A stretch of DNA of 64,000 bases from sequence record OQ703618.1; one strand, 5' to 3'. The notes below the pieces were generated by a model. The model searched no databases. It was not told where the DNA came from and saw only the letters and a list, made by a program, of their open reading frames with translations. This document shows positions 45,815-64,000 of this stretch, one piece after another. The DNA comes from Escherichia phage GADS24. The translations under genes and the position numbers were made by a program. How positions within the stretch are numbered: the first letter of the stretch is position 1; the number at the start of each line of letters is the position of its first letter.

Positions 45815-46285
45815 TTAATCATGTTTCCACACCCCATCGGTATTTGACCAAAGTCGCTGATTATCTGATCCTCGCCACAGTTTTTTGGTCGGAAGATTTT
45901 TCTCATACTTCCCATCAATAATAACATCAACATATTTAAGCATTTCTAGTTGTTTAATATCTTCAAATTTATATCCTGTCCACAACCAAATGCTTTTATT
46001 GGGATAAAGATTTTTTACTGTTTGAACAATGCAATGAATAACATCTCGGTTATCAGGATAGAGAGGGTCTCCTCCAGTTATAGTCAATCCTTCTATATAA
46101 TCATTATTCAAACATTCAATTAATTGTTCCAGTGTTTCACCAGTGAATGGAACGCCATTTCTAGCGTTCCATGTTGATTTATTATAACACCCTTCGCATT
46201 TATGCAAACAACCTGTAACGAAAAGAACGACCCTGCATCCAGGGCCATTCACAAAATCGCAAGGATAAAATCTATCATAATTCAT
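45815..46285 (-). CDS. nrdG: anaerobic RNR activating protein NrdG (radical SAM)
   Basis: 156 aa; CLHKCEGC cluster. Confidence 0.85.
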   Translation of the reverse strand: MNYDRFYPCDFVNGPGCRVVLFVTGCLHKCEGCYNKSTWNARNGVPFTGETLEQLIECLNNDYIEGLTITGGDPLYPDNRDVIHCIVQTVKNLYPNKSIWLWTGYKFEDIKQLEMLKYVDVIIDGKYEKNLPTKKLWRGSDNQRLWSNTDGVWKHD

Positions 46286-48099: not shown

Positions 48100-48569
48100 T
48101 TTAAACTCTTTCTAAGCTGCTTTTTGAATGAAGCTATTAATTGTGTTTTGGTATCAGATTCATTATATTCAAATCCTCTTTGAAGCATCTCAGCCACCAT
48201 TTCCTCTTTACCTAGTCTTGAGAACTCTTTAGTTTTGTCTGGAACAAAATTAGGATGGATATTATTATCAGAATAATCTTGTTTCAAATAAGCGAGAAGA
48301 GCTTCAAGCCATTCGAGGTAGTCGACATCACGGCCTTTAAGACCAGAACGGTTGAACTTATGCTTCATTTGGCCTTCTGCTGCGTTGCACAGATTACAGA
48401 GTAACCCACGAACTCTACCTGCTTTTGGCCCGTTTAATTCGTGGTCGTGGTCAAGATGGTTACCTTGAACATCAGGGTCTAATTCACGGTGGCAAATAGG
48501 ACACTTACCATTCTGTGCATCATAAAATTTTTGTTTTTCTTCTTTATATTTTGCGCCTGATAATAACAT
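48096..48569 (-). CDS. 49: endonuclease VII (gp49) Holliday junction resolvase
   Basis: 157 aa; near-identical blocks to T4 endo VII. Confidence 0.9.
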   Translation of the reverse strand: MLLSGAKYKEEKQKFYDAQNGKCPICHRELDPDVQGNHLDHDHELNGPKAGRVRGLLCNLCNAAEGQMKHKFNRSGLKGRDVDYLEWLEALLAYLKQDYSDNNIHPNFVPDKTKEFSRLGKEEMVAEMLQRGFEYNESDTKTQLIASFKKQLRKSLK

Positions 48570-49383: not shown

Positions 49384-49511
49384 AATAATCTCTTCCCATT
49401 TCCATATCAATTAATTCATTTATTGAAGGTTCATCATAACATGGTTCTTCGTCGTTGTAAACCGTTTCGACGTCTGGCTCGACAGTCTCCCATCGAGCAG
49501 AATACCACGGT

Positions 49512-49868
49512 TTAACCCCGGAGTTTATTGAGCTCTTCATAATCAATCCAGGATTCTAGCCCTGATGGCAGGTCACATTCAATGTTCCACAGAAGCTCTT
49601 CAATGGCTTGCAGGCGATTATATTCTTCAATGGTAATGGTAACCATTGGTGCAACCGGTTCTGCCTTTTTAACCATCATATCGTTCATCAGGACGTAAAG
49701 GTCATCACGAACGACAGTGTCGTTCCAACCCCATGATTTGGCTTCGTAAGCTAATGATGAAGGGAGCACATTTAAAACTTCAATAATAGTTGGAGCATCA
49801 GGACCAAGTTCATTGGCACAAACTTCGTATACATCTTGGAAATCTTTAAGATTTAATGAATATGTCAT
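49512..49868 (-). CDS. hypothetical protein
   Basis: 118-aa ORF. Confidence 0.45.
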   Translation of the reverse strand: MTYSLNLKDFQDVYEVCANELGPDAPTIIEVLNVLPSSLAYEAKSWGWNDTVVRDDLYVLMNDMMVKKAEPVAPMVTITIEEYNRLQAIEELLWNIECDLPSGLESWIDYEELNKLRG

Positions 49869-50128
49869 TTAAAATATTCTCGTAGTTGGTCAAATCCACC
49901 AATGTGACTTCCATCAGGAGCAAACACTTGAGGCATAGTCAATCCGACTTGTGATTCACGTCCAAGCTTAGCCAGAAGCTCAGCAATTTTTTCTTCATCG
50001 AATATACCTTTTTCTGGCATAACATTAATGAATTCGAATGGCTGTTTCTTAACAGTCAGCAATCGTTTCGCATTATCGCAATAAATGCATTTATGAATAG
50101 TAGAGTCATACCCGTACACTTTAAACAT
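49865..50128 (-). CDS. nrdC: thioredoxin/glutaredoxin NrdC
   Basis: Start MFKVYGY; CIYC motif; T4 NrdC-like. Confidence 0.8.
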   Translation of the reverse strand: MFKVYGYDSTIHKCIYCDNAKRLLTVKKQPFEFINVMPEKGIFDEEKIAELLAKLGRESQVGLTMPQVFAPDGSHIGGFDQLREYFK

Positions 50129-50534
50129 TATTTTTCCTTTCATCAATTAAATATGCAACGCCAAATACAATACATGTAATAAAACCTGTGATACAGATAG
50201 AAACCAATAACACTGTACCAAAGAACCAAATCAGGTTATCTTTAGTAGTTTGTTTGATATCCATCTCACGAATTTCTATAGCTATCGTATCACCTTTATT
50301 CAGAAGCGTATAAAACGACGGTGATACACGCCTGTCAAAAACTCGTCCTTGCTCATCTTTATAGACGGCAATAAATTCTAATTTAGAATATTTTCCTGTA
50401 GATTGACCTGAAATTAATTCCACTACCTCCACAGGAATTACTTTAGTTTCCATGTAAGTATTCTGGCTGTTCCAAATGAACGGAACGATGGCAAAAACTA
50501 AAGCTGCGATAAAACAACGAAGGCTATATCTCAT
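50121..50534 (-). CDS. membrane protein
   Basis: 137 aa with N- and C-terminal hydrophobic helices. Confidence 0.45.
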   Translation of the reverse strand: MRYSLRCFIAALVFAIVPFIWNSQNTYMETKVIPVEVVELISGQSTGKYSKLEFIAVYKDEQGRVFDRRVSPSFYTLLNKGDTIAIEIREMDIKQTTKDNLIWFFGTVLLVSICITGFITCIVFGVAYLIDERKNNV

Positions 50535-50809
50535 TATAATGTTCTCTCAAATTTGTGGAAGCATTTACGGCATTTCAATTTCAAGTTATCAGTAGTCCAG
50601 TTAACAAGTTGGACTTGGATAGTTCCACATTCTGGGCATGGATGTTTTGCTGCCGATTTGGCAGCATTTTCACGCCGTTCAACCATTTTCATGATTTCGT
50701 TCCATGCCGGAGGAACGAACTCTTCTTCACCGTGGATTTTATCTCGCTGAACAAATTCAATCTTTGAACTATCGTCAATAAACTTAACCAAGCTATGATT
50801 AGTGCTCAT
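50534..50809 (-). CDS. zinc-ribbon protein
   Basis: CPECG...CRKC; SD agagga. Confidence 0.45.
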   Translation of the reverse strand: MSTNHSLVKFIDDSSKIEFVQRDKIHGEEEFVPPAWNEIMKMVERRENAAKSAAKHPCPECGTIQVQLVNWTTDNLKLKCRKCFHKFERTL

Positions 50810-50838
50810 ATCAATATCCTCTAAAAGACGTAGTTTCA

Positions 50839-51789
50839 TTATAAAACCTCAATGGCATTTCGTAAACCGTCCGCTTTCGCATTCAGAGCTTTTAACGATT
50901 TAGTTTGTTCTGCAATCTGGGCTTCGACTTCTTTCAGACGAGATTTGAGGTATTCGCGTTCTTCTCTTAAATTATCAACTTTTTCTGCTTTAGGTTCTTT
51001 AATAGACTTAGGTTTATACGTATTAGGGTTCTTCAGCTTAATTTGAATACGAGAACTGAATAACATTGAACCGTTATCTTCGGTTTCGCTGAACATTTCA
51101 ACAACATCCATAGTCTGTAGTATCATACGAAGTTTATAAGACAATGAACGAACGGTTTTGTTATGCTTATTAATTTCTTCAGCTTTCATGGTACCGAGAT
51201 TACGTGAGTAGTAATAAGGAACCTGGATATCAATTGATAATGATGCGTTACCATTACCGGTTGGTTTGAATACTGCAGTAACCCAATCTTTAACATGAAC
51301 TTTATTTGTACGACCATCACCGCCCGTGAATAATTTACGAGAATGTTTAAAAAGCATATTCACTTGGTTATTGAATTCACAAGCAAATTTATCAGCAAAT
51401 TTAGTTTCAGGAATGGTAGATAACCAATCAGCCAAATGAGTCTTTTTAACATCATTAACAATAGTGAATTCAACCAAATCAGTTTTAGATGTCACAGATT
51501 TAATAAAGCTTGGCTTCATAAAGTTTTTAATGTTATCACGAGCCACAGTAGAAGATAATAAACGAGAACGTTTGAACCATTGAAGCAGTGTCCCTAATGA
51601 ATGAGAATACGCATTCTGAGTATCTTTACAGATATGATTTTCTTGACCTGTGTATGTACCAAAATCTCGAAGAATACCACTTACTACATCTCGGTGTGGA
51701 ACATCAAATCCTAATGAACCGGAAGCACGTTGGGCATGAACGTTAGCGATAAGACCTGCAAAATAATCAATGTAATGTGAACGTGTCAT
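50839..51789 (-). CDS. hypothetical protein with C-terminal coiled coil
   Basis: 316 aa, own early promoter. Confidence 0.5.
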   Translation of the reverse strand: MTRSHYIDYFAGLIANVHAQRASGSLGFDVPHRDVVSGILRDFGTYTGQENHICKDTQNAYSHSLGTLLQWFKRSRLLSSTVARDNIKNFMKPSFIKSVTSKTDLVEFTIVNDVKKTHLADWLSTIPETKFADKFACEFNNQVNMLFKHSRKLFTGGDGRTNKVHVKDWVTAVFKPTGNGNASLSIDIQVPYYYSRNLGTMKAEEINKHNKTVRSLSYKLRMILQTMDVVEMFSETEDNGSMLFSSRIQIKLKNPNTYKPKSIKEPKAEKVDNLREEREYLKSRLKEVEAQIAEQTKSLKALNAKADGLRNAIEVL

Positions 51790-51800
51790 AATATTTTCCT

Positions 51801-51853
51801 CTCGTTAAGATAGAAAGATTATACTCCAACCGTCCTTGGTTGTAAACTGATTT
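51801..51853 (-). repeat. ~50-bp early-promoter cassette copy (near-identical to 10221..10270)
   Basis: Direct nucleotide comparison of both copies. Confidence 0.7.
51818..51847 (-). promoter_or_regulatory. T4-type early promoter (-35 TTTACA, -10 TATAAT)
   Basis: Hexamers 17 bp apart. Confidence 0.55.
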
Positions 51854-52787
51854 ATGGTTTTAATGCATTCATTGCGTTAAAAAGTTTAGAGTACTGCAAC
51901 TGGAGCTTGGTAACTACTTGTTGAGCATCACGAAGCTTAGCTTGTGCTTTATCAAGTTCAACAGACAGTTGGTCCATAGTGCCCTTGATTTGATTATAAT
52001 AGTAATCTTCGGCAGGAAGAAGACCATTAGATATTTCCAGTTTAGTCGACGGTGAAGTGTATATAGATGGAGCAGTAGAATATGCACCTAGAACTTCAGC
52101 ATTGCCAATTGGGGTTGCAGTAATTGACGCTTCGAACGTCGCATTTTCCTTTTTAAGATTTTGATAGTATTCAGAGTCTTTGTGCCACCATGGCGCAGGA
52201 ACCTTTTTACCAATAGATACACGAGCCTGGATAGCGATATGGCCCTTATTCTTGATAGGGTTGATAATATTAAGCTCGCGAGAATAAATTGCTTTAATCT
52301 GGTGGATATTATCACCTAACACTTCCAACGCTTGGTGGAATACACGAGCAACGTTATCATTCTTAGGTTTATACGTAAGAGTGAATTCGTTCTCACTGAT
52401 AACCATAATTTCCAACTTATCGTAAGTATATTTCAAATGTTTCATGTTAATTGCTTGAGGACGAATACGAGAAGCAATGGCCATCAGATTGTTAAGGTTA
52501 TTCCGGAACTGCTTAGCGAAATATTGTCCTTCACCACCAATACAAAAATTACGAAGTTTCTGTTTAGCTAATAAACGGCTGAACTCACCATTTTTAATGA
52601 ACTCTTTAACGGGTGTGTTAGTAACGCATTCAAATTGAGTAAACTTACGAGAAGTAATCCCATAATATGAACAGACTTCCTCAATCTCTTCAGGAGTCTT
52701 TACAGGCATACGGATAGGATTAGGTCCTGGAGTATATGCGTTCGAGGTAAATTCTTTGATAAGTTCTCTACGTGTAATAAAAGCCAT
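51852..52787 (-). CDS. hypothetical protein with C-terminal coiled coil
   Basis: 311 aa. Confidence 0.5.
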   Translation of the reverse strand: MAFITRRELIKEFTSNAYTPGPNPIRMPVKTPEEIEEVCSYYGITSRKFTQFECVTNTPVKEFIKNGEFSRLLAKQKLRNFCIGGEGQYFAKQFRNNLNNLMAIASRIRPQAINMKHLKYTYDKLEIMVISENEFTLTYKPKNDNVARVFHQALEVLGDNIHQIKAIYSRELNIINPIKNKGHIAIQARVSIGKKVPAPWWHKDSEYYQNLKKENATFEASITATPIGNAEVLGAYSTAPSIYTSPSTKLEISNGLLPAEDYYYNQIKGTMDQLSVELDKAQAKLRDAQQVVTKLQLQYSKLFNAMNALKP

Positions 52788-52813
52788 TTTATATTCCTCG
52801 TGTTGAAAAATTT

Positions 52814-52842
52814 ATTATACTCCAACCGTCCTTGGTTGTACA
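52814..52842 (-). promoter_or_regulatory. T4-type early promoter (-35 TGTACA, -10 TATAAT), cassette variant
   Basis: Hexamers 17 bp apart; shares tatactccaaccgtccttggttgta with other copies. Confidence 0.55.
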
Positions 52843-53838
52843 TCATTCCTTAAGAAGTTTTACTACTTGAATAAGATTAGCTCGTTCTGTTTTATTTTTA
52901 CCGTTTAAGCCTGCTAATCGTGAGATTTCATCGTCAGTCTGTTGAATAGTTACATTAAGTTCGTTAATCAAAGCTTCAAAGTATTTGATTTGCTCAGCAT
53001 GTTTTGATTCAAATTTCTGAACCGGAATAACGTCTTGGTTCAGTTCATCAATAAGGTCTTTAAGAGCATCTTCTTGGTTGATATCATATTCAACTTCTTT
53101 TATTTCTTCAACGAGCTCGTCTTTATATCTAACGTCTTTTAGTCCTGGAGCTGGTCCTGAAATCTCTTCTTTAAGAGTACAAACATATACATTACGGTAT
53201 CTAATGCCGTCTCGCTTGATATCAACTTCGTCAATAAATCCACAATGTTTAAGTCCAGAGCCGATTATGTCAAAATATCCTTGACGTTGTCCTTCAAACG
53301 TTACACGAACTACTAAGACAGTTTTGCCACCAACCTTTTGAAGCTCACATTTATAAAAGTCTGTTGAACCTGAATAACGCGGATGAGTTTTAAAGTTCAT
53401 CTGACGATCTAGGCCCATTTGTAAGCGTGCTGATACGGCCATAAAACGTGTTTGGTTCTCGTTAAGATGAGCAACAATCCGTTTCAAAGGCATTTTACCC
53501 TGTTCACGACCGAACAAATCAGTACGTCCTAGATTACGCAGAATGTTGTTAGAGTTAATCATCGACAGAACGTTAAGTTTATTCAGCGCGCTGAAGATTC
53601 CATCGGCCATTGATTTTCCGTAACCTTTACACGCTTTAATAAGCGCTCGCGGGAGATTAGTATAGATTTCAGACGGCATATGAAAATCAAATTTACTAGT
53701 CAGTAATTGATGAACTTGGATAGCAATTTGCTCATAATTAAGTGCTCTGCGATCGTTATGGTCTTTAAACCACACTTTAATCTGTGAAGCACATAAACCG
53801 TTAATTTCATGTTTTACCGCATCAGATGTAATGCTCAT
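52843..53838 (-). CDS. hypothetical protein with C-terminal coiled coil
   Basis: 331 aa. Confidence 0.5.
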   Translation of the reverse strand: MSITSDAVKHEINGLCASQIKVWFKDHNDRRALNYEQIAIQVHQLLTSKFDFHMPSEIYTNLPRALIKACKGYGKSMADGIFSALNKLNVLSMINSNNILRNLGRTDLFGREQGKMPLKRIVAHLNENQTRFMAVSARLQMGLDRQMNFKTHPRYSGSTDFYKCELQKVGGKTVLVVRVTFEGQRQGYFDIIGSGLKHCGFIDEVDIKRDGIRYRNVYVCTLKEEISGPAPGLKDVRYKDELVEEIKEVEYDINQEDALKDLIDELNQDVIPVQKFESKHAEQIKYFEALINELNVTIQQTDDEISRLAGLNGKNKTERANLIQVVKLLKE

Positions 53839-53900
53839 AACTATTTCCTCAGATTGAATTGGAACTCAGAACCATTATAACCCGTCCTTGGGTAAAGCGT

Positions 53901-54428
53901 TTATGCGTGAACCGTCTTTAAACGTTCTTCAAATTTCCGAAGAGTACTAATACGTTCTGCTTTCTGTTTTGTATAGTTTGCAATACGTTCTGAAGTGAGA
54001 GCGTATCGTTCGTTTACTGTTTCTTTCATGAAGTCAGGGATTTCACGAGAAGCTTTAATTTCATCAAACTTATCGAGTACTGCCTGGTCTTCAGCGATTA
54101 AATTTTCGTACATCTCGATATCTTTCTTGATAAACTCGATATCTTCCTGGGTTACTTTGGATAAACGAGATGCTTTATCCTTTTTGTACTGCTCGTTAGT
54201 TTCACGAGACCAGAATAATGTACGTTTTTTGTTAGTATTTTTGTAGACTTCCACAATTCCAACTGAATCGATGATAGCAATCCAATTCCAGCGAGATTTG
54301 AAAATCTGACCTCCGTCCACGGTAATCTCATTACCATAAGCAACGTCATTAAAGAACTTGCTTTGTGCTTCAGATTTAAATTTACCGTCGTTATAATTTA
54401 CCAGGTTGAAAATATCTTTAGCGTTCAT
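53901..54428 (-). CDS. hypothetical protein
   Basis: 175-aa ORF. Confidence 0.5.
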   Translation of the reverse strand: MNAKDIFNLVNYNDGKFKSEAQSKFFNDVAYGNEITVDGGQIFKSRWNWIAIIDSVGIVEVYKNTNKKRTLFWSRETNEQYKKDKASRLSKVTQEDIEFIKKDIEMYENLIAEDQAVLDKFDEIKASREIPDFMKETVNERYALTSERIANYTKQKAERISTLRKFEERLKTVHA

Positions 54429-54455
54429 GTTTTACCTCCAGTAGTTGATAGGTCT

Positions 54456-54484
54456 ATAATAACATAACCATAGACCTTGTAAAC
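54456..54484 (-). promoter_or_regulatory. T4-type early promoter (-35 GTTTAC, -10 TATTAT)
   Basis: Hexamers 17 bp apart. Confidence 0.55.
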
Positions 54485-54486
54485 AA

Positions 54487-54774
54487 CTAAAAGAAACTTT
54501 TTTCGGTATTTTTTCCACTGAACCAAACCGACTTCGGGACTTTCTGTAATTTTTCGGATTTAAGTTTCTCTTCCTGTTCTTTCTTATATGCATCCTTGTC
54601 GTACTGGAACAACTCTAGGGCATTCTTTTGTAGACGGTCTAAGGTAATTAAGGCTTTAGTTTTTCCTTTCAAGGAAGAGTCCTGGCGAACCTCCTCGCTA
54701 TATTGCATTGTAGAACTAACCATACGATGAGCATACAGTTCGACTGCGGCTTTAATTTTTTGCATAAAATCCAT
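54487..54774 (-). CDS. hypothetical protein
   Basis: 95-aa ORF. Confidence 0.4.
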   Translation of the reverse strand: MDFMQKIKAAVELYAHRMVSSTMQYSEEVRQDSSLKGKTKALITLDRLQKNALELFQYDKDAYKKEQEEKLKSEKLQKVPKSVWFSGKNTEKSFF

Positions 54775-54912
54775 AACATATCCTCTTTGATTTGTACATC
54801 ATTATTTTTAAATATTTCTATGCCCTCAGTAGGTTCCTGGTGTCCTTCTTTGAGGTAAGCCATATGATTATTCATCTTTATGGCTTTTGTTACCTCAGAA
54901 CTTCCTATAAGC

Positions 54913-55914
54913 TTATTTCAGTAAAGTTACTTCAGAGATTTCCTCCCAACCATCTTTATCAGTTGAAATAAAATCTGCTACATAAAGAGCCGTACGTAAT
55001 GATACGTTGCGAAGACGAGATACGTTAGCCTTCATCCAGGACAATGCTTTATACGTTTCTGCATCTGTCAGACCACGTTTCTGCATCATGTCAGTAGATA
55101 ATATTACATCTTCAACTCGAACCATAATCTCTTCATTAGAGTGTACTCCAAGGTCAAGATACACTGAACGAGATACTAAAGCTTGAAGGTGTGGGGCAAG
55201 CTTCGAACCGCGTTCTAACTCTTTATCGATATCAACGTTTGTAATGAAAACGATAGTACCTTCAAACTCAAATTCTTTATCAATACCCTTATCATCGAGA
55301 TAAGATGACGCAGTGCTCCAACAAACTTTGCGTTTATCTCCGGTATCTAATGCTGCTTTAAGAAGGTTCAAGATGTCCATATCTGAGAATACGTCAACGT
55401 CGTCGATTAAGAGAACGCTATCTGCATCACGGTTGAGCCAAAGTTGTTCGTAAAGGCCTATACCAGAGATTTTACCATTAATGCTTTTGTATTTGATGAA
55501 ACCATTATCATTAGCATTATTAAGTGCTTTATCCAGAGAATACGTCTTACCAATACCAGCTGCACCTGAAATAATGAGTGAACGAATTTTGCCATCGATA
55601 ATGCCATTCGTCATCATGTTCATTACTTTAAAGCGTTTGTTGATACGAGTTTTCATATCTTCAGTGCTTTCAACAACTGCAACTGGTGATGTCTCAACTC
55701 CTTCCATTACGATGTCTGATTTGAAGACCCATACTCCACGTTCAGAACCATCAATCATAACGAAAATTTTACCATCACCTAAGTGGGAACATTCAGGATT
55801 AAGCTTTGCCGGGAACCAGGTCTTTGTGGCAACATAAGAACCAGAGATTTCGTTATTACGATAGATACCTTTTTTGATTTGAACGTTGAACATTTTATTC
55901 TCCAATTTACTCAT
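54913..55914 (-). CDS. P-loop ATPase (AAA-like)
   Basis: 333 aa; Walker A GAAGIGKT and Walker B LLIDDVD. Confidence 0.55.
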   Translation of the reverse strand: MSKLENKMFNVQIKKGIYRNNEISGSYVATKTWFPAKLNPECSHLGDGKIFVMIDGSERGVWVFKSDIVMEGVETSPVAVVESTEDMKTRINKRFKVMNMMTNGIIDGKIRSLIISGAAGIGKTYSLDKALNNANDNGFIKYKSINGKISGIGLYEQLWLNRDADSVLLIDDVDVFSDMDILNLLKAALDTGDKRKVCWSTASSYLDDKGIDKEFEFEGTIVFITNVDIDKELERGSKLAPHLQALVSRSVYLDLGVHSNEEIMVRVEDVILSTDMMQKRGLTDAETYKALSWMKANVSRLRNVSLRTALYVADFISTDKDGWEEISEVTLLK

Positions 55915-55931
55915 TTCGTTTCGATAGGTCT

Positions 55932-55960
55932 ATAATAACATGTTTAAAGCAAAAGTAAAC
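55932..55960 (-). promoter_or_regulatory. T4-type early promoter (-35 GTTTAC, -10 TATTAT)
   Basis: Hexamers 17 bp apart. Confidence 0.55.
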
Positions 55961-55962
55961 AA

Positions 55963-56181
55963 TTATTTGCGACGAGATTTTTTGGTAAGAGGTTGAAAGA
56001 ACACTGCTTTACCGGCTGGGGTTAAGGTGACTCGTAATGCGTTACCGATTCCTAAGGATGCTTTAACTAGACCTTTAGCTTTCAGTTCACCGAATGCTTG
56101 ACGTTGGTCTGCATCACGAGTGTTAACCATAAGACCTTTATCACCTGCTTCACGAATCATTTCTAACATTTTGGTTTTCAT
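55963..56181 (-). CDS. hypothetical protein
   Basis: Start MKTKMLEM. Confidence 0.4.
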   Translation of the reverse strand: MKTKMLEMIREAGDKGLMVNTRDADQRQAFGELKAKGLVKASLGIGNALRVTLTPAGKAVFFQPLTKKSRRK

Positions 56182-56209
56182 TTTGTTCTCCTCTTGTTTT
56201 GATAGGTCT

Positions 56210-56238
56210 ATAATAACATATCCTAAAAGCATGTACAC
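56210..56238 (-). promoter_or_regulatory. T4-type early promoter (-35 GTGTAC, -10 TATTAT)
   Basis: Hexamers 17 bp apart. Confidence 0.55.
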
Positions 56239-56261
56239 TACTTTTTAAAAATATTTTAACC

Positions 56262-56284
56262 CCCTAAAGGGACCCGAAGGTCCC
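56262..56284 (-). terminator. GC hairpin, weak terminator
   Basis: Stem gggacc/ggtccc, UUCG loop on minus, short T-run. Confidence 0.35.
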
Positions 56285-56289
56285 CATAT

Positions 56290-56571
56290 TTACTTATCGC
56301 ACTTAGCAACATAATTAGGCATATCACAGAATACGGAGCGAGTAACTACTCGACCCTTTGACCATGCTTCAGTTGCTTGTCCAGCCGTGCTATTAATATA
56401 GCTTGATTTAATGTTCTCAATACCCTGAGAATGTGATGCATTTACAGAACCATTAGAAGGCCCAGAAGACTGGTTACCACCAGCTCCTGCACTACCGCCA
56501 GCAGAACCCGTGGTAGCACCAACAGAGAATGCCATCATTACTGCGAATAAACCAATTACTAATTTTTTCAT
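56290..56571 (-). CDS. secreted Gly/Ser-rich protein with signal peptide
   Basis: 93 aa; signal peptide; late promoter upstream. Confidence 0.45.
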   Translation of the reverse strand: MKKLVIGLFAVMMAFSVGATTGSAGGSAGAGGNQSSGPSNGSVNASHSQGIENIKSSYINSTAGQATEAWSKGRVVTRSVFCDMPNYVAKCDK

Positions 56572-56602
56572 ATTTACCTCAAGTTAAGGGTTATTTATCT
56601 AC

Positions 56603-57592
56603 TTATTTATAGTAAGAATTATGATTTTCGAGATAGACTTGTTCAAGGAAGTCATCCCAGAAACTCATATCTACTTTTTGTTGCATACCGTTCTTGGCAG
56701 CTTGTTCTGACGCATGTTCAACTTGGTCAACGATATCTTCTAGGAATTCTTGTACAGTTTTAAACGTATGTTTACCAAGCTTAACATCAAGAATAAATGG
56801 AGCATCCTGAAGTGGGTAAACCAGGTCGCCTGTTTTGTAAATTTCTAATAATTGAAGTCCACCACGACATGCATGACTCAATGCTTTCCAGTCAATACCT
56901 TCGTTAGCTTCTGCCTTACGAGCACGTTCGCCATAGTTCTCTTCTAGTTTAACAAGGATGGCATTGAACTCTTTATTGGTTAACGTGTCTTGGAATTTAC
57001 GGTCCAACAGATTATAGAATGTTTGCTTACCTGTTTTCTCGTTTTCGGTTTCAACCCATGAAGCAAATTCACCTACAGGCAGAACATTCTTCATATGTGA
57101 TAAACGAATTACTGCCCCATTATCAAAGTATTGTCCCCATTCATTAGAACGTTTAAGGGCTTGTCGAAGAACAGCCAATCGAGAACCCTTGACGCCATAT
57201 TTAGAAGCTTGCTTACGGACATACCCTAAATAAGATTTCATGTTAGTGGTATAGAAACGAGACCTGTTATCTTGAATATGCTTCCATACATCAGGCAAAT
57301 CAGATTTAACTACTAGACTTTGTGGAGTGTGAAGCATATCTAATGCGACGGTTTCACCATCTGCAGCTAGTTTAAAGAAATATTTGAGACTATACAACTC
57401 ATGGTCCACGTCGTCTTTTGTGTTCTTAGAAGACGTGTTATTCGTGTTCTTGCTCATATGTTCTTTAACGTTACCGGTCAAGATATCACGAGCATGAGGG
57501 ACATAAATTTCTTTAAAATCGACGTCAGATTCAGGAGTAGACGTTCCATAAAGGTGACTACCAAAGTAGCCTTTCATAATTGTTTTCATCAT
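56603..57592 (-). CDS. nucleotidyltransferase-domain protein (MNT/pol-beta superfamily)
   Basis: 329 aa; N-terminal GSHLYGTSTPESDVD (GS-x9-D-x-D) motif. Confidence 0.55.
   Translation of the reverse strand: MMKTIMKGYFGSHLYGTSTPESDVDFKEIYVPHARDILTGNVKEHMSKNTNNTSSKNTKDDVDHELYSLKYFFKLAADGETVALDMLHTPQSLVVKSDLPDVWKHIQDNRSRFYTTNMKSYLGYVRKQASKYGVKGSRLAVLRQALKRSNEWGQYFDNGAVIRLSHMKNVLPVGEFASWVETENEKTGKQTFYNLLDRKFQDTLTNKEFNAILVKLEENYGERARKAEANEGIDWKALSHACRGGLQLLEIYKTGDLVYPLQDAPFILDVKLGKHTFKTVQEFLEDIVDQVEHASEQAAKNGMQQKVDMSFWDDFLEQVYLENHNSYYK
56604..56611 (-). promoter_or_regulatory. T4 late promoter TATAAATA
   Basis: Exact TATAAATA on minus ~32 nt upstream of 56571 ATG. Confidence 0.5.
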
Positions 57593-58062
57593 TTAGCCTT
57601 ATATTCAAGAGTAGGACAGACTTTTTCTTTACGAGCTTTAAGGTATTCACCTATTAATGATTTCTTACGTTCAATAGGCTCTAGTCCATTTTTAATTCGT
57701 TCTTGGTTTTGTGCAATGAGCTCAATTTCTTTATAATATTTTCTGTCGTTATATTTGTCTAACAACCAAGACGGGCCAATTACCAACCCGGTAGCAATAA
57801 AAGCCATGACTGCTACCATTAAAATGCCTACGCCAATTGAGGCCGGAACTAATGCCCATAGACTGCTAAAAACAAAGAATCTAGTTAAAAATTCCTGGCC
57901 AATGATTACGACTGCTGCTAAAATAGCAAATCCAATAATTGAAACAGCCAATACTGGGATTAACGTTTTCCAAAAATAAGCACACAACGTTTTCGGACGA
58001 TTCCATGTACTATTGAACATGGCATAAATTTTAAAGTGCCAAGAGTTTTCATTGATAATCAT
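57589..58062 (-). CDS. integral membrane protein
   Basis: 157 aa, several hydrophobic helices. Confidence 0.45.
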   Translation of the reverse strand: MIINENSWHFKIYAMFNSTWNRPKTLCAYFWKTLIPVLAVSIIGFAILAAVVIIGQEFLTRFFVFSSLWALVPASIGVGILMVAVMAFIATGLVIGPSWLLDKYNDRKYYKEIELIAQNQERIKNGLEPIERKKSLIGEYLKARKEKVCPTLEYKAK

Positions 58063-58071
58063 AATAATTCC

Positions 58072-58602
58072 TTATTTCAAAGTCGGGATAATAGAATCAA
58101 GATAAGCTTTAAGAGCAACTGCTTCATTTTTGTCTAATGTAATGATATGTTGACGAAGGTCGTCAATTTGGCGAATAACTACGACATCACCGTCTTCATA
58201 AGAAGGATTAACTCCCAGGACTGTTGTATAATCAGGGCGGTCCTGATTTGTAATAAAAGCATTACGGCATTTAGCCCATTGAAGTTTGGCCTTTTTGGCT
58301 GTTTCAGATTCCATGAATTCTTTCACTTTAGCGACGAATGTTTTCCAATTATTAATAGAAAAACATTCGTCTTCAGTTTCGATATTAACCCCACTATAAA
58401 GTCCGTGATAAAAACGAACTTGAAGGTCTTCATTAATGTTAATTACAGATGCATGGCCGGGTGGATTGAGTTTCAAAATCTTGTCCAGTTCCATAGGAAG
58501 AATAGTAGCAGCATCATCTTCTTGTGTCAGAACATACACATAACCACGTTTTTCGATACATAAATCACCAAACAACTCGGTCGTTTCAATTACAGTTTTC
58601 AT
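58072..58602 (-). CDS. hypothetical protein
   Basis: Start at MKTVIETT. Confidence 0.45.
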   Translation of the reverse strand: MKTVIETTELFGDLCIEKRGYVYVLTQEDDAATILPMELDKILKLNPPGHASVININEDLQVRFYHGLYSGVNIETEDECFSINNWKTFVAKVKEFMESETAKKAKLQWAKCRNAFITNQDRPDYTTVLGVNPSYEDGDVVVIRQIDDLRQHIITLDKNEAVALKAYLDSIIPTLK

Positions 58603-58918
58603 ATTATTCACCAATTAAAGTTTCGACAAAATTCACCAAAGCATTCTGGCAAGCATCAACCTGATTTTCATAAAAGTCCACGTTATCATTTACCGCATGA
58701 TAAGCTACATCATTCAAATCTGAATCGGCTTCACGTAAGTCATGGATAAGGTCCATCAATTTATTAGCTTGTTCACGGGTCATTTTACCATACTCGTTTC
58801 AATAAGATTCACTATGCCGTTTACCATGTTATAAGTAAACATCGGATAATTGTATTGTACTACAACATAAGCGATAAGCAAAAGTTTCATTTTGTTCTCC
58901 ATTTGTTTTGGTAGGATT

Positions 58919-58948
58919 ACTATATCATAGTCCTACCAAGACGTAAAC
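58919..58948 (-). promoter_or_regulatory. T4-type early promoter (-35 GTTTAC, -10 TATAGT) with inverted repeat ggtaggactat
   Basis: Hexamers ~18 bp apart. Confidence 0.5.
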
Positions 58949-59181
58949 TACCGATTGTGTTTTAAATGTTGATAAAGCTCTTCAACTTGTTTAGGGTCCA
59001 AAACAATTAAGTCATTTTCTTGGCGAAGATAAATCCATCCCTTATCCCCAGGGCCATTTTTACAAAACATCACCACCGTATCATCATCTTCAGCGCTTTC
59101 AGGTAAAAGTTCAAGTACACCGTCTTCAGATTTTCCAGTATAATCGTAAAGCATAATATCCTCACATAATCTCGTTAACAT
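58948..59181 (-). CDS. hypothetical protein
   Basis: 77-aa ORF. Confidence 0.4.
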   Translation of the reverse strand: MLTRLCEDIMLYDYTGKSEDGVLELLPESAEDDDTVVMFCKNGPGDKGWIYLRQENDLIVLDPKQVEELYQHLKHNR

Positions 59182-59341
59182 ACATTTGCAATTCGGTGTG
59201 GGCTTCAGCCATCTTTTTCATAGCTCTGTTAATGTCGATGTCTCCATCTTCGCAACCATGAGCATTTTCCCAATCAGACACCGCATTAGCGTACTCTTCA
59301 ATCAAAAACATCAACTTAGAAATCTTTTCTTTACGTGTCAT
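59162..59341 (-). CDS. hypothetical protein
   Basis: Start MTRKEK with SD aggaga. Confidence 0.35.
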   Translation of the reverse strand: MTRKEKISKLMFLIEEYANAVSDWENAHGCEDGDIDINRAMKKMAEAHTELQMYVNEIM

Positions 59342-59368
59342 AACGTTCTCCTCTAGTAAGTAAAGACT

Positions 59369-59397
59369 ACTATAACACAACCTGAGGAGAAGTAAAC
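59369..59397 (-). promoter_or_regulatory. T4-type early promoter (-35 GTTTAC, -10 TATAGT)
   Basis: Hexamers 17 bp apart. Confidence 0.55.
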
Positions 59398-59407
59398 TGC
59401 TAAATGC

Positions 59408-59436
59408 AAAAAAGCCCCAACCGTAAGGAAGGGGCT
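59408..59436 (-). terminator. intrinsic terminator
   Basis: Stem gcccc/ggggc with T6 on minus strand. Confidence 0.55.
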
Positions 59437-59442
59437 AGTAAA

Positions 59443-59745
59443 TTAGATAGATGTAGGCTCTAATTTTATTTTCATGAACTCGGCAAATTGTCTGGCAGTT
59501 TTTATGCCTTGTTCATGACATTCAAATGCATCGTCACAGGGGCTATTTTTGTAATGCTTTGCCATATACTTATAGAATTTTTCAGAATTCTCGACATTTT
59601 GAATTTCAAACAAAGTATATACGTTTTTAATCCCTGATTCCATAAAGTTATCAAAATATGGGTCTGTGTACGCAGTACCAACGTTAGGAGTTGTTGCTGC
59701 AAAAAACCCCAGCATCGCCATGACAGCTATCGCTCTTAAGGCCAT
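59443..59745 (-). CDS. secreted protein with signal peptide
   Basis: 100 aa; signal peptide. Confidence 0.45.
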   Translation of the reverse strand: MALRAIAVMAMLGFFAATTPNVGTAYTDPYFDNFMESGIKNVYTLFEIQNVENSEKFYKYMAKHYKNSPCDDAFECHEQGIKTARQFAEFMKIKLEPTSI

Positions 59746-59757
59746 ATAGGCCTCCTG

Positions 59758-59970
59758 TTAATTTTGGCCAGTATTTATTTTTCGCCTTTGGACGGCCTTA
59801 ACATCTGTGAGGTATTTTTCCAGCTTGCGCTTGCGTGTATAATCAGCTTTAGAACCAGTTTGACGGATATCCTCGTTTAAATGAGAAATAGAATGTCCTA
59901 ATTCTCTTCGGATTTCATCCAATTGGGTTACAGTAAGATTACGAAGTTGTCTTTCGTTTAATTGCTGCAT
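59758..59970 (-). CDS. hypothetical protein
   Basis: 70-aa ORF; late promoter upstream. Confidence 0.4.
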
Positions 59971-59994
59971 ATATACCTCTTGGTTAGATATTAG

Positions 59995-60002
59995 TATTTA
60001 TA
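59995..60002 (-). promoter_or_regulatory. T4 late promoter TATAAATA
   Basis: Exact TATAAATA on minus 25 nt upstream of 59970 ATG. Confidence 0.45.
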
Positions 60003-60579
60003 ACAACCCTGTCAAATCATTCCAATGCTTCCGGCATAATGACACATATCTATCGGTATCACCAATTTCAATTTGACTGCCATCCGTAATTGGAAGTCCG
60101 TCTTCCGTGACTCTAGCTACCATTGTGGCCTTTTTACCACAATGACAGACACCTTTAAGTTCAACAAGCTTATCGGCAATAGCCATTAATGCTTGAGAAC
60201 CTTCAAATAGATTACCTTTAAAATCTGTTCGTAGTCCATATGCCATTACTGGCACATTGTATACGTCAACAATACGACTAAGTTGATACACCTTTTCAGT
60301 AGTTAAGAACTGAGCTTCGTCAACAAATACACAATGAATATCCTTTTGTGCTGCAGCCCATTTATAGAATTCAAAGATATCCATGTCTTTTGTAATTATA
60401 TTGGCGTCCTGACGAATACCAATACGAGAGACTATTTCACCTTTTGAATCGCGAGTATCAATAGCCGGTTTAAGAACTAATACACCCATGCCACGTTCTT
60501 TATAGTTATGTGCGGCAGTAAGTAATGAAGCAGACTTACCAGCGTTCATAGCGGCATATGTAAAAATTAAACTAGCCAT
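59998..60579 (-). CDS. tk: thymidine kinase
   Basis: Start MASLIFTYAAMNAGKS; T4 Tk-like. Confidence 0.9.
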   Translation of the reverse strand: MASLIFTYAAMNAGKSASLLTAAHNYKERGMGVLVLKPAIDTRDSKGEIVSRIGIRQDANIITKDMDIFEFYKWAAAQKDIHCVFVDEAQFLTTEKVYQLSRIVDVYNVPVMAYGLRTDFKGNLFEGSQALMAIADKLVELKGVCHCGKKATMVARVTEDGLPITDGSQIEIGDTDRYVSLCRKHWNDLTGLL

Positions 60580-60588
60580 AAGAGTCCC

Positions 60589-60771
60589 TTATAGTGAATT
60601 CACGTAGTCAATGAGTTCTTGTTCTTTCCTGTCAAATGATTCCATCAATGCTTGATATTCTTCATCTGTTAAAGGAGCATATTCATCGTACGCATTGGTG
60701 GCTGCTTGCTCATCCAATAGGTCATGAATAAGTTCAAACAGTTTAGCTTTCTCTTCTTTAGTTAATTTCAT
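60589..60771 (-). CDS. hypothetical acidic protein
   Basis: 60-aa ORF. Confidence 0.4.
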   Translation of the reverse strand: MKLTKEEKAKLFELIHDLLDEQAATNAYDEYAPLTDEEYQALMESFDRKEQELIDYVNSL

Positions 60772-60995
60772 TTAGGTTCACCTTCTTTAACGAAATCTGG
60801 GTAAGGGTAAAATCCTGAGTAAAACCCTTCACCTTTATGATTGCTACAACCTTTGTTCGAACAGTAACACCAATAATCAAAATCACAAGCCATTTCGTCA
60901 TTGCATAAAGCAAAAACTACAGGCCATTCGCATTTTTCGCATTTAGCACCTGTAAGAATTTTTGTTTGACTCATAGCCATGTCACCTTTAAGCAA
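60768..60995 (-). CDS. Cys-rich small protein (putative zinc binding)
   Basis: CEKCE...CNDEMACD...CYCSNKGC. Confidence 0.4.
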   Translation of the reverse strand: MLKGDMAMSQTKILTGAKCEKCEWPVVFALCNDEMACDFDYWCYCSNKGCSNHKGEGFYSGFYPYPDFVKEGEPK

Positions 60996-61198
60996 TATTC
61001 TTCTACATGTTGTTTACGGCCTTTCTTATCAATAAAGGTATATTCAACGAATGTTCCGATGTAGTCTTTATCTACATCATGTGGACTATTAATTGGGCAT
61101 TTGGTACGACAAATGCGTTCCCATTGACGAATAATTACTGCCTTATTCTTTGGGTCATATGGATGTGGATAATGTATATTCATAATAACGGTTCCCAA
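60971..61198 (-). CDS. hypothetical protein
   Basis: 75-aa ORF. Confidence 0.4.
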   Translation of the reverse strand: MGTVIMNIHYPHPYDPKNKAVIIRQWERICRTKCPINSPHDVDKDYIGTFVEYTFIDKKGRKQHVEEYCLKVTWL

Positions 61199-61677
61199 TC
61201 AACAATCACAATTTCTAGTTTAGTGGAATACGTATCTAAAATCTCTTCGATGACATCCCAGTTTCCACCACCAATACCTGCACCAATTCTTGGCATATAA
61301 ATTACAGGCTTTGTTATCTTATTCTTTCCGAATTCATTTAATTCTATTATACAATTCATTAAAGCAGAGTACTCAAAATTAGGTCCCGGCTCAAACTGCG
61401 TATAAAGATTAAAGCAATAAGCTTTATGGGTCTTAAAATATTTTTCATAAACCGAATAAGTCCCGAGTTTAGACTCGTCTCCGAATTCGGTTTGAAGTTT
61501 ATCAGCTTCCAGAATTTTTGGATAAGCCTTTGCTAATTGTCCTGCCACACCGGCGCCCATTGTATGAAAACAATTACACCCATGAGCGATATTATTACCT
61601 TTAGAAAACAGGGCGACAATATCGCCCTTGATATAGTTTTTAATCACTTGCTGCAAGTCCTCTATTATAAGAGTCAA
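61180..61677 (-). CDS. macro domain protein (ADP-ribose binding/hydrolase-like)
   Basis: 165 aa; GCNCFHTMGAGVAGQL and GIGGG macro signatures. Confidence 0.6.
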   Translation of the reverse strand: MTLIIEDLQQVIKNYIKGDIVALFSKGNNIAHGCNCFHTMGAGVAGQLAKAYPKILEADKLQTEFGDESKLGTYSVYEKYFKTHKAYCFNLYTQFEPGPNFEYSALMNCIIELNEFGKNKITKPVIYMPRIGAGIGGGNWDVIEEILDTYSTKLEIVIVDWEPLL

Positions 61678-61987
61678 CTAGACGGTCCACCATAGAATTG
61701 CATGCTGCCTTATCTTTAGGTTCCGCCACCGAGCATTCTAATATTTGCCATTTTTTATAGTATCTTTTAATTAAGGTAGACGCCTTGAACCTACTAGACG
61801 CCCCATCTTTTTCTCCGTCTTTATACGCATATAACAATTTTTGTGAAAAATCTACTTTACACTCTTGACTTTGACCACAATAATCAGACGCCGTTCTGTT
61901 TGTATACTCCGTTATATCAGTATATGTAGTATTAGCAAGAGCGTTAAATGAAACCAAGCCAACTATTAAAGCCAACATTTTGGTCAT
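61640..61987 (-). CDS. secreted protein with signal peptide
   Basis: 115 aa. Confidence 0.45.
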   Translation of the reverse strand: MTKMLALIVGLVSFNALANTTYTDITEYTNRTASDYCGQSQECKVDFSQKLLYAYKDGEKDGASSRFKASTLIKRYYKKWQILECSVAEPKDKAACNSMVDRLVDSYNRGLAASD

Positions 61988-62526
61988 TCTTTTATTTCCA
62001 GTAGTTTATTTGATTTAAGGTAATTGGCCTTTTCTAGGACTTCAGAAGCATATTTACTTCCAGCACTTGTCTTCCATCCCGCGTTATATGAGGATATAGC
62101 TTTTCTTATATCCCCATTATGTATATTTAACCAATAAGAAAATTCGATATAAGCCCATCTGGCTGAATTAGACCGCTTAGATAGCATTTTCTTAATTTGG
62201 GCATCAGTCATATTATAACCAAGCTGGTTAATTCTTGCCCTCATTGTTGGTAGATAATTTTGGAACATTCCATACGCATGGTGACCTTTCTTATCTTTAA
62301 GATTAATACCGGCAGATGATTCCTGCCATAGTATTGCGGCCATTATGTATCCAAGTCCTTTCTTATGCATATTTTCATGCGTTTTAAATTTTCCGTCCTT
62401 AGAAAACTGTTCCCCGAACTGATAAGCATAATTCAAGTTATCGAGTTGGACATTACTAAAAGTATGCTCGGAGCTATGTGCTGATAACGAAAGAGCAAAT
62501 AGACCAGCGAGTAGTGCTTTTCTCAT
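61984..62526 (-). CDS. secreted lytic transglycosylase-like protein (SLT domain)
   Basis: Signal peptide; catalytic-region motif WQESS...GMFQ. Confidence 0.5.
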   Translation of the reverse strand: MRKALLAGLFALSLSAHSSEHTFSNVQLDNLNYAYQFGEQFSKDGKFKTHENMHKKGLGYIMAAILWQESSAGINLKDKKGHHAYGMFQNYLPTMRARINQLGYNMTDAQIKKMLSKRSNSARWAYIEFSYWLNIHNGDIRKAISSYNAGWKTSAGSKYASEVLEKANYLKSNKLLEIKE

Positions 62527-62534
62527 GTTTACCT

Positions 62535-62993
62535 CTAGATTTTAATCACTGCTTTAGAAGCTTTTCCTGGTAGTCGTTTACTGTTAATAATAGCCATTCT
62601 GCATTGAAGAGTCTTCATTTTGAATGCTGGATTTTCGCGACAAACTGTAAGTCCTAACCAAAGATTTCCGTCAGTTATTTCTAAACGGCCTGGGCGATAT
62701 TCGACACCTTCGACAAAATCTTCATCAACATCTGGACGTGCCGGCATTGATAAAAATTCTGCAACTTCTTTAACATGATTTTTTACTTTACGAAATAATT
62801 CAAAAACGTAATTCTCGTCTATTTCTCTCTGGATGGCACGATCTAAGAGATGTTGAGAATACTTGATATGAAAGCCTGGTAGTCCAAGAGACTTTGCAGC
62901 ATCTTTTATACCGGCATTTATTTTGCGGAACTCCGTTTCAAAGATTCGACGGAGTTTATTACGGCGGATAAAAACGTCTGAATTGATAGTCAT
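62535..62993 (-). CDS. regB: RegB site-specific endoribonuclease
   Basis: 152 aa; long identical blocks to T4 RegB. Confidence 0.85.
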   Translation of the reverse strand: MTINSDVFIRRNKLRRIFETEFRKINAGIKDAAKSLGLPGFHIKYSQHLLDRAIQREIDENYVFELFRKVKNHVKEVAEFLSMPARPDVDEDFVEGVEYRPGRLEITDGNLWLGLTVCRENPAFKMKTLQCRMAIINSKRLPGKASKAVIKI

Positions 62994-63021
62994 TTTGATT
63001 TCTCCTCTAGTTGACAGGTCT

Positions 63022-63050
63022 ATAGTAACACAACTAGAGGAGAAGTAAAC
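63022..63050 (-). promoter_or_regulatory. T4-type early promoter (-35 GTTTAC, -10 TACTAT) flanked by 11-bp inverted repeat tcctctagttg/caactagagga
   Basis: Hexamers 17 bp apart; downstream arm carries regB SD. Confidence 0.6.
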
Positions 63051-63349
63051 TACTCTTTGAAAGGAATTAACTTTTTAACTGCTTTAGATACTTCGTCACG
63101 AACCTGGTGGAAGTTCTTGAGCTGTTCAAGGCGTTGTTCGTAATACGCAATCTCATCTTCTTCAAGACAATCATCAGCGTCTTCTTTCAGATATGCCTTG
63201 TACTCATTAAAGAGGGCCCATAGGCGATTCTCAAAGTCATCAAGGCTTTGAATTTTCTTGTGCTTCGGAACAAGGCCAAAAGGATTGCTTTCAGTTATGC
63301 GTCGAGATGCTTCATAATGAGTTCCAAAGCCTGATAGGATTTGAGCCAT
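63050..63349 (-). CDS. hypothetical protein
   Basis: Start MAQILSG; TAATG overlap with upstream gene. Confidence 0.45.
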
Positions 63350-63594
63350 TAGTATTTTTCCTCTGGTTGAAATACCGCACGACAAGCCCACATACTAGCT
63401 TCCTTTAGGCGTTCTTTAGCACAGTTCAATTGGGACAAAGCCGTCAGAGCTTCAGGAGTATTTGCTGATAATGCTTCTTCTGCCAGGGCGTCTAGAATAA
63501 GTCCTAAACGAACTTCAGCATCTTTAATAGCGTTCACTTTACCGATTTTATCATCGGTATGCGGCTTGTAGCCTTTAATATCTTCAATCGTCAT
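63349..63594 (-). CDS. hypothetical protein
   Basis: Internal start MTIEDIKG chosen. Confidence 0.4.
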
Positions 63595-63808
63595 AAGGAA
63601 TTTCCTCATCTGTGGCAAGGTCATATTCGACCAATTGGATAGGCTCATTAATACCGTATCCACGTACAGTGATATCAGTTGTCGGATAGTTTCCAGTAAT
63701 ATCACCCATTCTAAATGCTTCAATGAATGATTGCTCGCCTGAGCAACTAAACCAGGCGGCAAAACATTTTAAAACATCTTCAGACCCTTCTATAATCAAT
63801 TTAGCCAT
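63584..63808 (-). CDS. hypothetical acidic protein
   Basis: 74-aa ORF. Confidence 0.4.
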   Translation of the reverse strand: MAKLIIEGSEDVLKCFAAWFSCSGEQSFIEAFRMGDITGNYPTTDITVRGYGINEPIQLVEYDLATDEEIPYDD

Positions 63809-64000
63809 TATAGACTCTCGGTAAAGGTACGAGCGATAACGTCGCGCTGCTGTTCCGGAGTCAGAGAGTTAAAGCGAACTGCATAACCGGATACACGGAT
63901 GGTCAGCTGCGGATATTTTTCCGGATGCTTAACTGCATCTTCCAGAGTTTCACGACGCAGAACGTTAACGTTCAGGTGTTGACCACCTTCAATTTTAACT
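63808..64000 (-). CDS. autonomous glycyl radical cofactor (GrcA/YfiD-like), C-terminal part; 5' end beyond window
   Basis: Hand translation ends ...[34 protein letters not shown]; RVSGYA glycyl-radical motif; GC-rich E. coli-like codons. Confidence 0.6.

Follow-up and report, generated by a model that had tools for sequence, protein, structure and literature searches.

At the end of the window, i.e., the whole stretch of 64,000 nucleotides analysed here, lies the 3′ part of a small phage gene with a tract identical, synonymous positions included, to the grcA gene of Escherichia coli. From the sequence comparisons described below we consider it very probable that this is an old phage gene, coding for a spare part of a host enzyme, whose 3′ ca. 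170–180 nt are periodically overwritten from the grcA of the current host by gene conversion. A broader version of this idea, to which we incline with less assurance, is that the 3′ half of the gene (vs.6 in T4) would evolve in concert with the chromosome, being of the E. coli type in Tequatrovirus and Mosigvirus and of the Klebsiella type in Jiaodavirus, by recurrent conversion from host to phage. Neither the gene nor its function is new: work on vs.6, or Y06I, goes back to 2001, and hundreds of phage records annotate it as grcA or vs.6. The gene is of little interest in itself, the patch of somewhat more. A search of the literature retrieved the functional work on Y06I and nothing on nucleotide identity with the host grcA or on host tracking, and the older T4 literature may mention the mosaic.

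Gene Identity and Genomic Neighborhood

The window belongs to a Mosigvirus, a T4-like coliphage. Over its last 1 kb it shares 99.2% identity with Escherichia phage UGJNEcP1 (Mosigvirus; Straboviridae, Tevenvirinae) and at least 95% with more than 100 further coliphage records. On the minus strand, positions 63811–63999 can be read without any stop and translate as [63 protein letters not shown], and the C-terminal end of the frame 63811–64000 reads [29 protein letters not shown]. These are the 3′-terminal 190 nt (63 codons plus 1 nt; 63811–64000, minus strand) of a vs.6/Y06I/grcA-like gene that is cut by the window edge. The TAA stop (63808–63810, minus strand) shares one base with the ATG (63806–63808) of the following gene, so that TAATG is read at 63806–63810, as the preliminary description had stated. 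This stop/start overlap suggests translational coupling with the vs.5-like ORF located directly downstream (63584–63808, minus strand, 74 aa), which was assigned by PHROG 1986 (1.9e-39) and by synteny with T4 and UGJNEcP1.

The window covers only the 3′ 190 nt, and the length and the 5′ half of the gene have been taken from relatives. In UGJNEcP1 the complete ORF has 363 nt, codes for 120 aa and is annotated as grcA (2831–3193 in segment L001); the same stand-alone size of 120 aa is found in T4 and nine other phages. The genes that come after grcA in UGJNEcP1 are in the order found in the window (the same small genes, regB, vs.1, vs ... tdk), and the order is also that of T4, where vs.6, vs.5, vs.4, vs.3, regB, vs.1, vs ... 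tk make up the denV-to-tk early region. By synteny with both phages, the window ORFs that follow the grcA-like gene in the T4 order are those at 63584–63808, 63352–63594 and 63053–63349 and regB at 62535–62993, all on the minus strand. The second of them, two genes downstream of the grcA-like gene, is a vs.4-like ORF of 81 aa (63352–63594, minus strand) with the Pfam PF24729 Acb2/Tad1 hairpin domain (4.9e-18), a family that we take to be phage sponges for cyclic-nucleotide immune signals (anti-CBASS/Thoeris).

The T4 counterpart at this position is vs.6 (NC_000866, 63557–63919), placed between vs.7 and vs.5, and its junction with vs.5 likewise overlaps, coordinate 63557 being common to both genes. 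The protein of the full-length relative is 93% identical to T4 Vs.6 and matched PHROG 1209, the group of T4 vs.6, over its full length (E=5.9e-63, residues 1–120 on profile positions 1–121). The fragment is therefore the 3′ end of the Mosigvirus ortholog of T4 vs.6 (Y06I). A Gly_radical domain has been noted in vs.6 for six out of six T4-like genomes (Nolan et al., 2006; PMC1524935). Given this presence and the existence of PHROG 1209, vs.6 as a whole is an old and conserved gene of the T4 family, and no recent acquisition.

A Host-Identical Patch in the 3′ Half

With a GC content of 47.9%, where the mean of the window is 37.2% (sd 3.5%, 190-nt windows), the fragment belongs to the top 0.15% of all 190-nt windows. 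Its GC3 is 0.41 while that of the adjoining genes is between 0.26 and 0.38. The preliminary description had called the fragment far more GC-rich than the rest of the window; it is indeed a clear outlier, although the wording was slightly strong, since six further short islands equal it. These islands (ca. 48% or more in 190 nt) are located at 6285–6525, 17511–17704, 39134–39367, 48288–48504, 49427–49617 and 56331–56527, and none of the six had a megablast match to E. coli genomes among the matches listed. High GC alone is therefore no marker of host DNA.

In the nucleotide comparison with E. coli grcA, which had been proposed as a check, we found a perfect match of 172 nt (63821–63992, minus strand, against grcA nt 200–371) that covers the glycyl-radical module EGGQHLN...RTFT. 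The 56 codons that lie wholly within the match had zero differences from E. coli; under phage codon usage only about 24 of the 56 would be expected to agree, and the probability of agreement in all of them is ca. 1e-26. Over the 180-nt segment that runs from EGGQHLN to the last codon the identity was 97.8%, and the four differences were all synonymous and all within the last four codons (T-E-S-L; 63811–63822, minus strand). This is the 3′ edge of the patch in the alignment of ten phages with E. coli, and the variants found there are specific to phage lineages. On the other side, the sequence directly 5′ of the patch, as read in the relatives, is AT-rich and phage-specific and cannot be aligned with grcA at the nucleotide level. 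The GC content of the patch itself is 48–50%, vs. 37% for the window.

When the fragment was compared by blastn with 5,426 complete E. coli genomes, grcA was matched in all of them (97.8% in the best genomes), and the other E. coli loci that matched it were found only in the band of 60–80% identity. Using megablast against the same 5,426 genomes, positions 1–50000 of the window gave zero matches, and for positions 50001–64000 the matches listed were all on 63800–63992, under grcA. Among the megablast matches listed, no host-like DNA other than the patch was detected in the window. The proposal of a recent acquisition from an enterobacterial host has to be divided accordingly: the 3′ ca. 170–180 nt do appear to be recent host DNA, but the gene as a whole is old.

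Recurrence in Other Phages and Apparent Host Tracking

A comparable situation was found in phages of a second host genus. When a Klebsiella grcA was used as query, 60 phage records were retrieved at 95–99% identity over grcA nt 199–374, with the same 5′ boundary. All 12 phages among the matches listed were Klebsiella phages, and the one examined was a Jiaodavirus. In Klebsiella phage 15882-1 the 168-nt core was 96.4% identical to the Klebsiella allele, which is an approximate donor, and 87.5% to E. coli; its segment has a GC content of 56%, vs. 37% in its own 5′ half. The 80-species GTDB panel lacked the K. pneumoniae complex, and the best match of Jiaodavirus there was only 88–92%. At the protein level, the pair E/K of the E. 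coli type occurs in [13 protein letters not shown] of E. coli phages, while the Klebsiella and Enterobacter phages examined have L/E at the same two positions, as do the GrcA proteins of Klebsiella and Salmonella.

The pattern has clear limits. No phage was found at 95% identity or more with the Salmonella grcA as query, and none at 90% or more with that of Yersinia artesiana. A Tequatrovirus isolated from Salmonella carried the E. coli patch; the isolation host given in database records may differ from the natural host. A recent host patch was also absent from the vs.6-like genes of Slopekvirus, Pseudotevenvirus, Krischvirus, T5-like and jumbo Erwinia phages, which had 69–85% identity to any species of the panel. 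The apparent host tracking is seen for Escherichia and Klebsiella only, and it is not universal among phage vs.6 genes. Still, the presence of both E. coli-type and Klebsiella-type patches requires at least two independent replacements of the same segment from host to phage.

Some other copies of the gene, of which ca. 1,500 are on record in phages, deserve mention on their own. In the T4-like contig IMGVR_UViG_2706794630_000006, the 180-nt segment is 91% identical to the grcA of Yersinia artesiana and 81% to that of E. coli, with a GC content of 48% against 41% in the flanks, and may represent a third host patch, of Yersinia type. The Erwinia jumbo phage pEa_SNUABM_47 has a vs.6-like gene (323–685, segment L093) of 36% GC and without a host patch, with a putative anaerobic RNR activase (1136 onwards, segment L093) located two genes downstream of it, and T5-like phages of Salmonella and E. 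coli have a diverged copy of vs.6. With copies in jumbo Erwinia phages and T5-like phages, the spare-part gene is widespread beyond the T4-like phages. In the Slopekvirus Klebsiella phage CPRSA (OM971648.1) the vs.6 frame (324–686, segment L085) has in-frame stops in its 5′ half, and the annotation gives a “grcA” ORF of only 186 nt and another ORF upstream of it. A frameshift or pseudogene may account for this, as may an error in the sequence, or else the C-terminal module may naturally stand alone in this phage. Enterobacterial-type grcA genes with 91–92% amino acid identity to E. coli were also found under two unusual labels, “Vagococcus sp. WN89Y” (NZ_JBQPOM010000029.1; a Firmicute label), which is likely a mislabelled or contaminated assembly, and the 275-kb “plasmid unnamed4” of Klebsiella sp. 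WOUb02, likely a chromid or a mis-assigned replicon.

We have considered whether one recent conversion from E. coli to a coliphage, followed by spread from phage to phage among the T-even genera during co-infections, could be sufficient. T-even phages recombine readily, and the patches of T4 type and Mosigvirus type have the same boundaries and nearly the same core, as such a spread would leave them. However, both flanks are lineage-specific, the 5′ half being 88% identical and the last four codons different. The type Mosigvirus is presumably RB69. RB69 is described in PMC6024577 as unable to recombine with T4. A single conversion plus spread is possible for the pair Tequatrovirus/Mosigvirus but fails for the Klebsiella-type patch, which needs a separate event from host to phage, and as a general explanation we consider it unlikely.

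Age and Direction of the Exchange

A reference for the age of the patch is given by the divergence of grcA among the bacteria themselves. Over the 180-nt segment, identity to E. coli was 98.9% for the grcA of Escherichia sp. (cryptic clade), 92.8% for Citrobacter amalonaticus, 88.3% for Serratia, 84–87% for Klebsiella spp. and 83.9% for Salmonella enterica, and the dS between E. coli and Salmonella in the same segment was 1.02. These values indicate that the patch is Escherichia-specific and far younger than the split between Escherichia and Salmonella. Within the phages, the dS between T4 and Mosigvirus was 0.44 in codons 1–60 and 0.12 in codons 61–120. All these dS estimates are based on about 45 synonymous sites. 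The core of the patch had only 0–3 scattered differences from E. coli, mostly singletons, in the ten phages of T4 type and Mosigvirus type that were aligned, and none of the core differences was fixed by lineage. Lineage-specific differences were, on the contrary, abundant in the 60 nt that adjoin the core on its 5′ side and in the last four codons. The patch appears therefore to be younger than the speciation of the phages (T4/Mosigvirus). As to its direction, divergence from other enterobacteria is similar for the 5′ and the 3′ half of the E. coli grcA, and the patch has a host-like GC content; the transfer was therefore from host to phage.

These data bear directly on the simplest alternative, that grcA was captured only once, long ago, and then descended vertically, with the identity maintained by extreme purifying selection that included synonymous sites. 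The 60-aa module is in fact nearly invariant in Enterobacterales and phages, and vs.6 is conserved in T4-like phages (PMC1524935), both of which such a history would predict. However, nucleotide differences of 7–16% are found between bacteria whose proteins are identical or almost so (Citrobacter 92.8%, Serratia 88.3% and Salmonella 83.9% identity), indicating that constraint on the protein does not fix the codons. The identity of 56 codons (P ca. 1e-26), the lack of lineage-fixed differences in the core of phages whose 5′ halves are separated by a dS of 0.44 and the presence of a Klebsiella-type patch in Klebsiella phages are all against it, and we regard an ancient capture as very improbable.

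The identity of the patch to the host and its position right at the window edge might also raise the suspicion of host contamination or of a chimeric assembly at this locus. But the patch is in frame and has the same boundaries in all ten E. coli phages aligned, the T4 reference included, and identities of 95% or more to E. coli grcA nt 200–384 are found in ca. 500 independent phage records. Besides, the gene ends in four codons and a TAATG junction that are specific to the phages, and the frame runs unbroken into a 5′ half of phage type, so that an artefact is hardly conceivable.

Family Assignment and Predicted Function

The Pfam domain Gly_radical was detected on the 63-aa fragment with E=7e-19, indicating that it is far more than a chance ORF. 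The preliminary description had assigned it to the GrcA/YfiD type, and we arrived at the same assignment. The top NCBIfam model was TIGR04365 GrcA (InterPro IPR011140), with 136 bits for the fragment and 159.1 bits for the full-length relative; both missed the curated equivalog cut-off of 170 bits, a shortfall attributable to the divergence of the N-terminal half. This model outranked the one for full-length pyruvate formate-lyase (PFL), TIGR01255, with 90 bits for a cut-off of 994. The nearest solved structure was that of E. coli YfiD (6OWR, E=2e-42) and the second the C-terminus of PflB (residues 696–759). Using phmmer, residues 21–120 of the phage protein were aligned with residues 27–127 of YfiD, leaving the first 20 aa unaligned and with low identity in the first 60; MAFFT placed the N-terminal motifs ARxIVxK and REVxxE in common between both proteins. 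The radical-bearing glycine is coded by GGT (63886–63888, minus strand) within the motif RVSGYAV, as located from the sequence, from the alignment to 6OWR and from an invariant alignment column. Counted through the offset of the alignment, this glycine corresponds to residue 95 in the 120-aa phage protein and to residue 102 in E. coli YfiD.

The Gly_radical domain also terminates PFL and NrdD and the 5′ end of the gene is outside the window, but the idea of a full-length glycyl radical enzyme (PFL-like or NrdD-like), of which the fragment would be the C-terminus, has a negligible probability, considering that in the 99.2%-identical relative the ORF stands alone with 120 aa and a different gene before it, with no catalytic barrel of ca. 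750–850 aa, that TIGR01255 gave 90 bits where 994 are required and that nrdD is a separate gene at 46282–48099. An NRDD domain was found neither in the fragment nor in the full-length relative.

The gene of the window is predicted to code for a 120-aa autonomous glycyl radical cofactor. For its T4 ortholog the function has been shown: PMC8683613, citing Wagner et al. (2001, BBRC), describes that PFL-AE installs the glycyl radical in Y06I and that the complex of Y06I with O2-cleaved PFL regains activity, and counts only two biochemically validated PFL spare parts, T4 Y06I and E. coli YfiD. The identity of 93% to T4 Vs.6, together with a C-terminal module that is 100% identical, suggests that the same rescue of PFL operates here. 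Oxygen would cut the host pyruvate formate-lyase (PflB) at the radical glycine, the C-terminal module of the small protein would stand in for the lost PflB C-terminus, the host activase PFL-AE would turn the glycine of the small protein into a radical and PFL activity would thereby return. For the phage, the benefit would be to maintain the supply of fermentative acetyl-CoA/ATP and formate by the host during micro-aerobic or anaerobic infection.

The gene had been described as one component of an anaerobic toolkit together with phage nrdD and nrdG, and both are indeed present in the window. The first codes for the anaerobic class III ribonucleotide reductase, itself a glycyl radical enzyme (46282–48099, minus strand; Pfam NRDD 9.7e-171 and Gly_radical 1.2e-25), and the second for the radical-SAM activase of NrdD (45815–46285, minus strand; Pfam Fer4_12 1.5e-48 and Radical_SAM 1.7e-07). 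With these two genes in the window the framing is reasonable. The reductant of class III RNR is formate and PFL produces formate, which would be the link between them.

A Proposed Model of Periodic Gene Conversion

The pattern in the sequences has been observed directly, and from it we infer the conversion mechanism and its rationale in terms of fitness. To work as a spare part, the protein would need to dock into the host PflB and to be recognized by the host PFL-AE, and we propose that these two needs are the reason for the extreme constraint on the C-terminal module at the protein level. Such constraint would keep the phage and host genes similar enough in nucleotides for a tract of the host grcA to be copied by the recombination machinery of the phage; recombination over short homologies is plausible in view of PMC8262927. 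Once copied, the tract would be a perfect substrate for more conversion. It would stop where the homology between phage and host is lost; on the 5′ side this happens immediately before EGGQHLN, and on the 3′ side within the last four codons. The outcome would be a docking module identical to that of the host, synonymous codons included.

Implications

We take the mosaic as direct evidence that strictly lytic T-even phages still trade short stretches of homologous DNA with the chromosome of the host. This exchange must be recent, since the patch equals E. coli exactly while E. coli and Salmonella differ by 16% there, and it appears to be independent in different host genera. The mosaic offers a simple natural system in which gene conversion from host to phage could be measured. 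If our interpretation is true, the patch would be the sole host-identical DNA in these genomes and a molecular record of the recent host genus, as well as a natural read-out of the frequency of recombination between a lytic phage that degrades host DNA and its host. There are also practical consequences. Filters for host contamination will flag this locus in genuine phage genomes. In addition, grcA is a conserved marker of a PCR/qPCR typing assay for Straboviridae (PMC12845203), and, with the 3′ ca. 170 nt identical to the host, an assay of this kind could amplify the E. coli chromosome if the primers are located in the 3′ half.

Comparison with Known Systems

The closest known system is T4 Vs.6 (Y06I), an ortholog of the same length (120 aa) at the same position, with the same stop/start overlap with vs.5 and with an E. 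coli-identical 3′ patch that has the same boundaries. The differences are those between a Tequatrovirus and a Mosigvirus, with 88.5% nucleotide identity in the 5′ half, and an R-to-H substitution within the patch of T4 that is not found in the window. The E. coli GrcA (YfiD, 6OWR) shares 100% of the C-terminal 60 aa, 172 nt of identical DNA and the motif RVSGYAV. However, the E. coli protein is longer by 7 aa, the N-terminal ca. 60 aa of the phage protein are only distantly similar to it and AT-rich in their DNA, and the host gene is located beside ung whereas the phage gene is found among phage genes of the same strand. As to the C-terminal glycyl radical domain of PflB (PDB 1H16 and others), it is for this module that the spare part stands in, and residues 57–120 of the phage protein align with PflB 696–759 (E=3e-26), but the phage protein has neither the catalytic barrel nor the Cys-Cys site.

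A wider parallel can be drawn with psbA and psbD of cyanophages, in which host-like patches in the phage copies have been ascribed to recombination with host alleles. In both situations, a phage copy of a host metabolic gene carries host-like patches. The case described here differs in that the phage is a virulent, hmC-containing T-even phage, in that the patch has only ca. 170 nt and a fixed boundary, and in that the 5′ half of the gene has diverged past nucleotide alignability.
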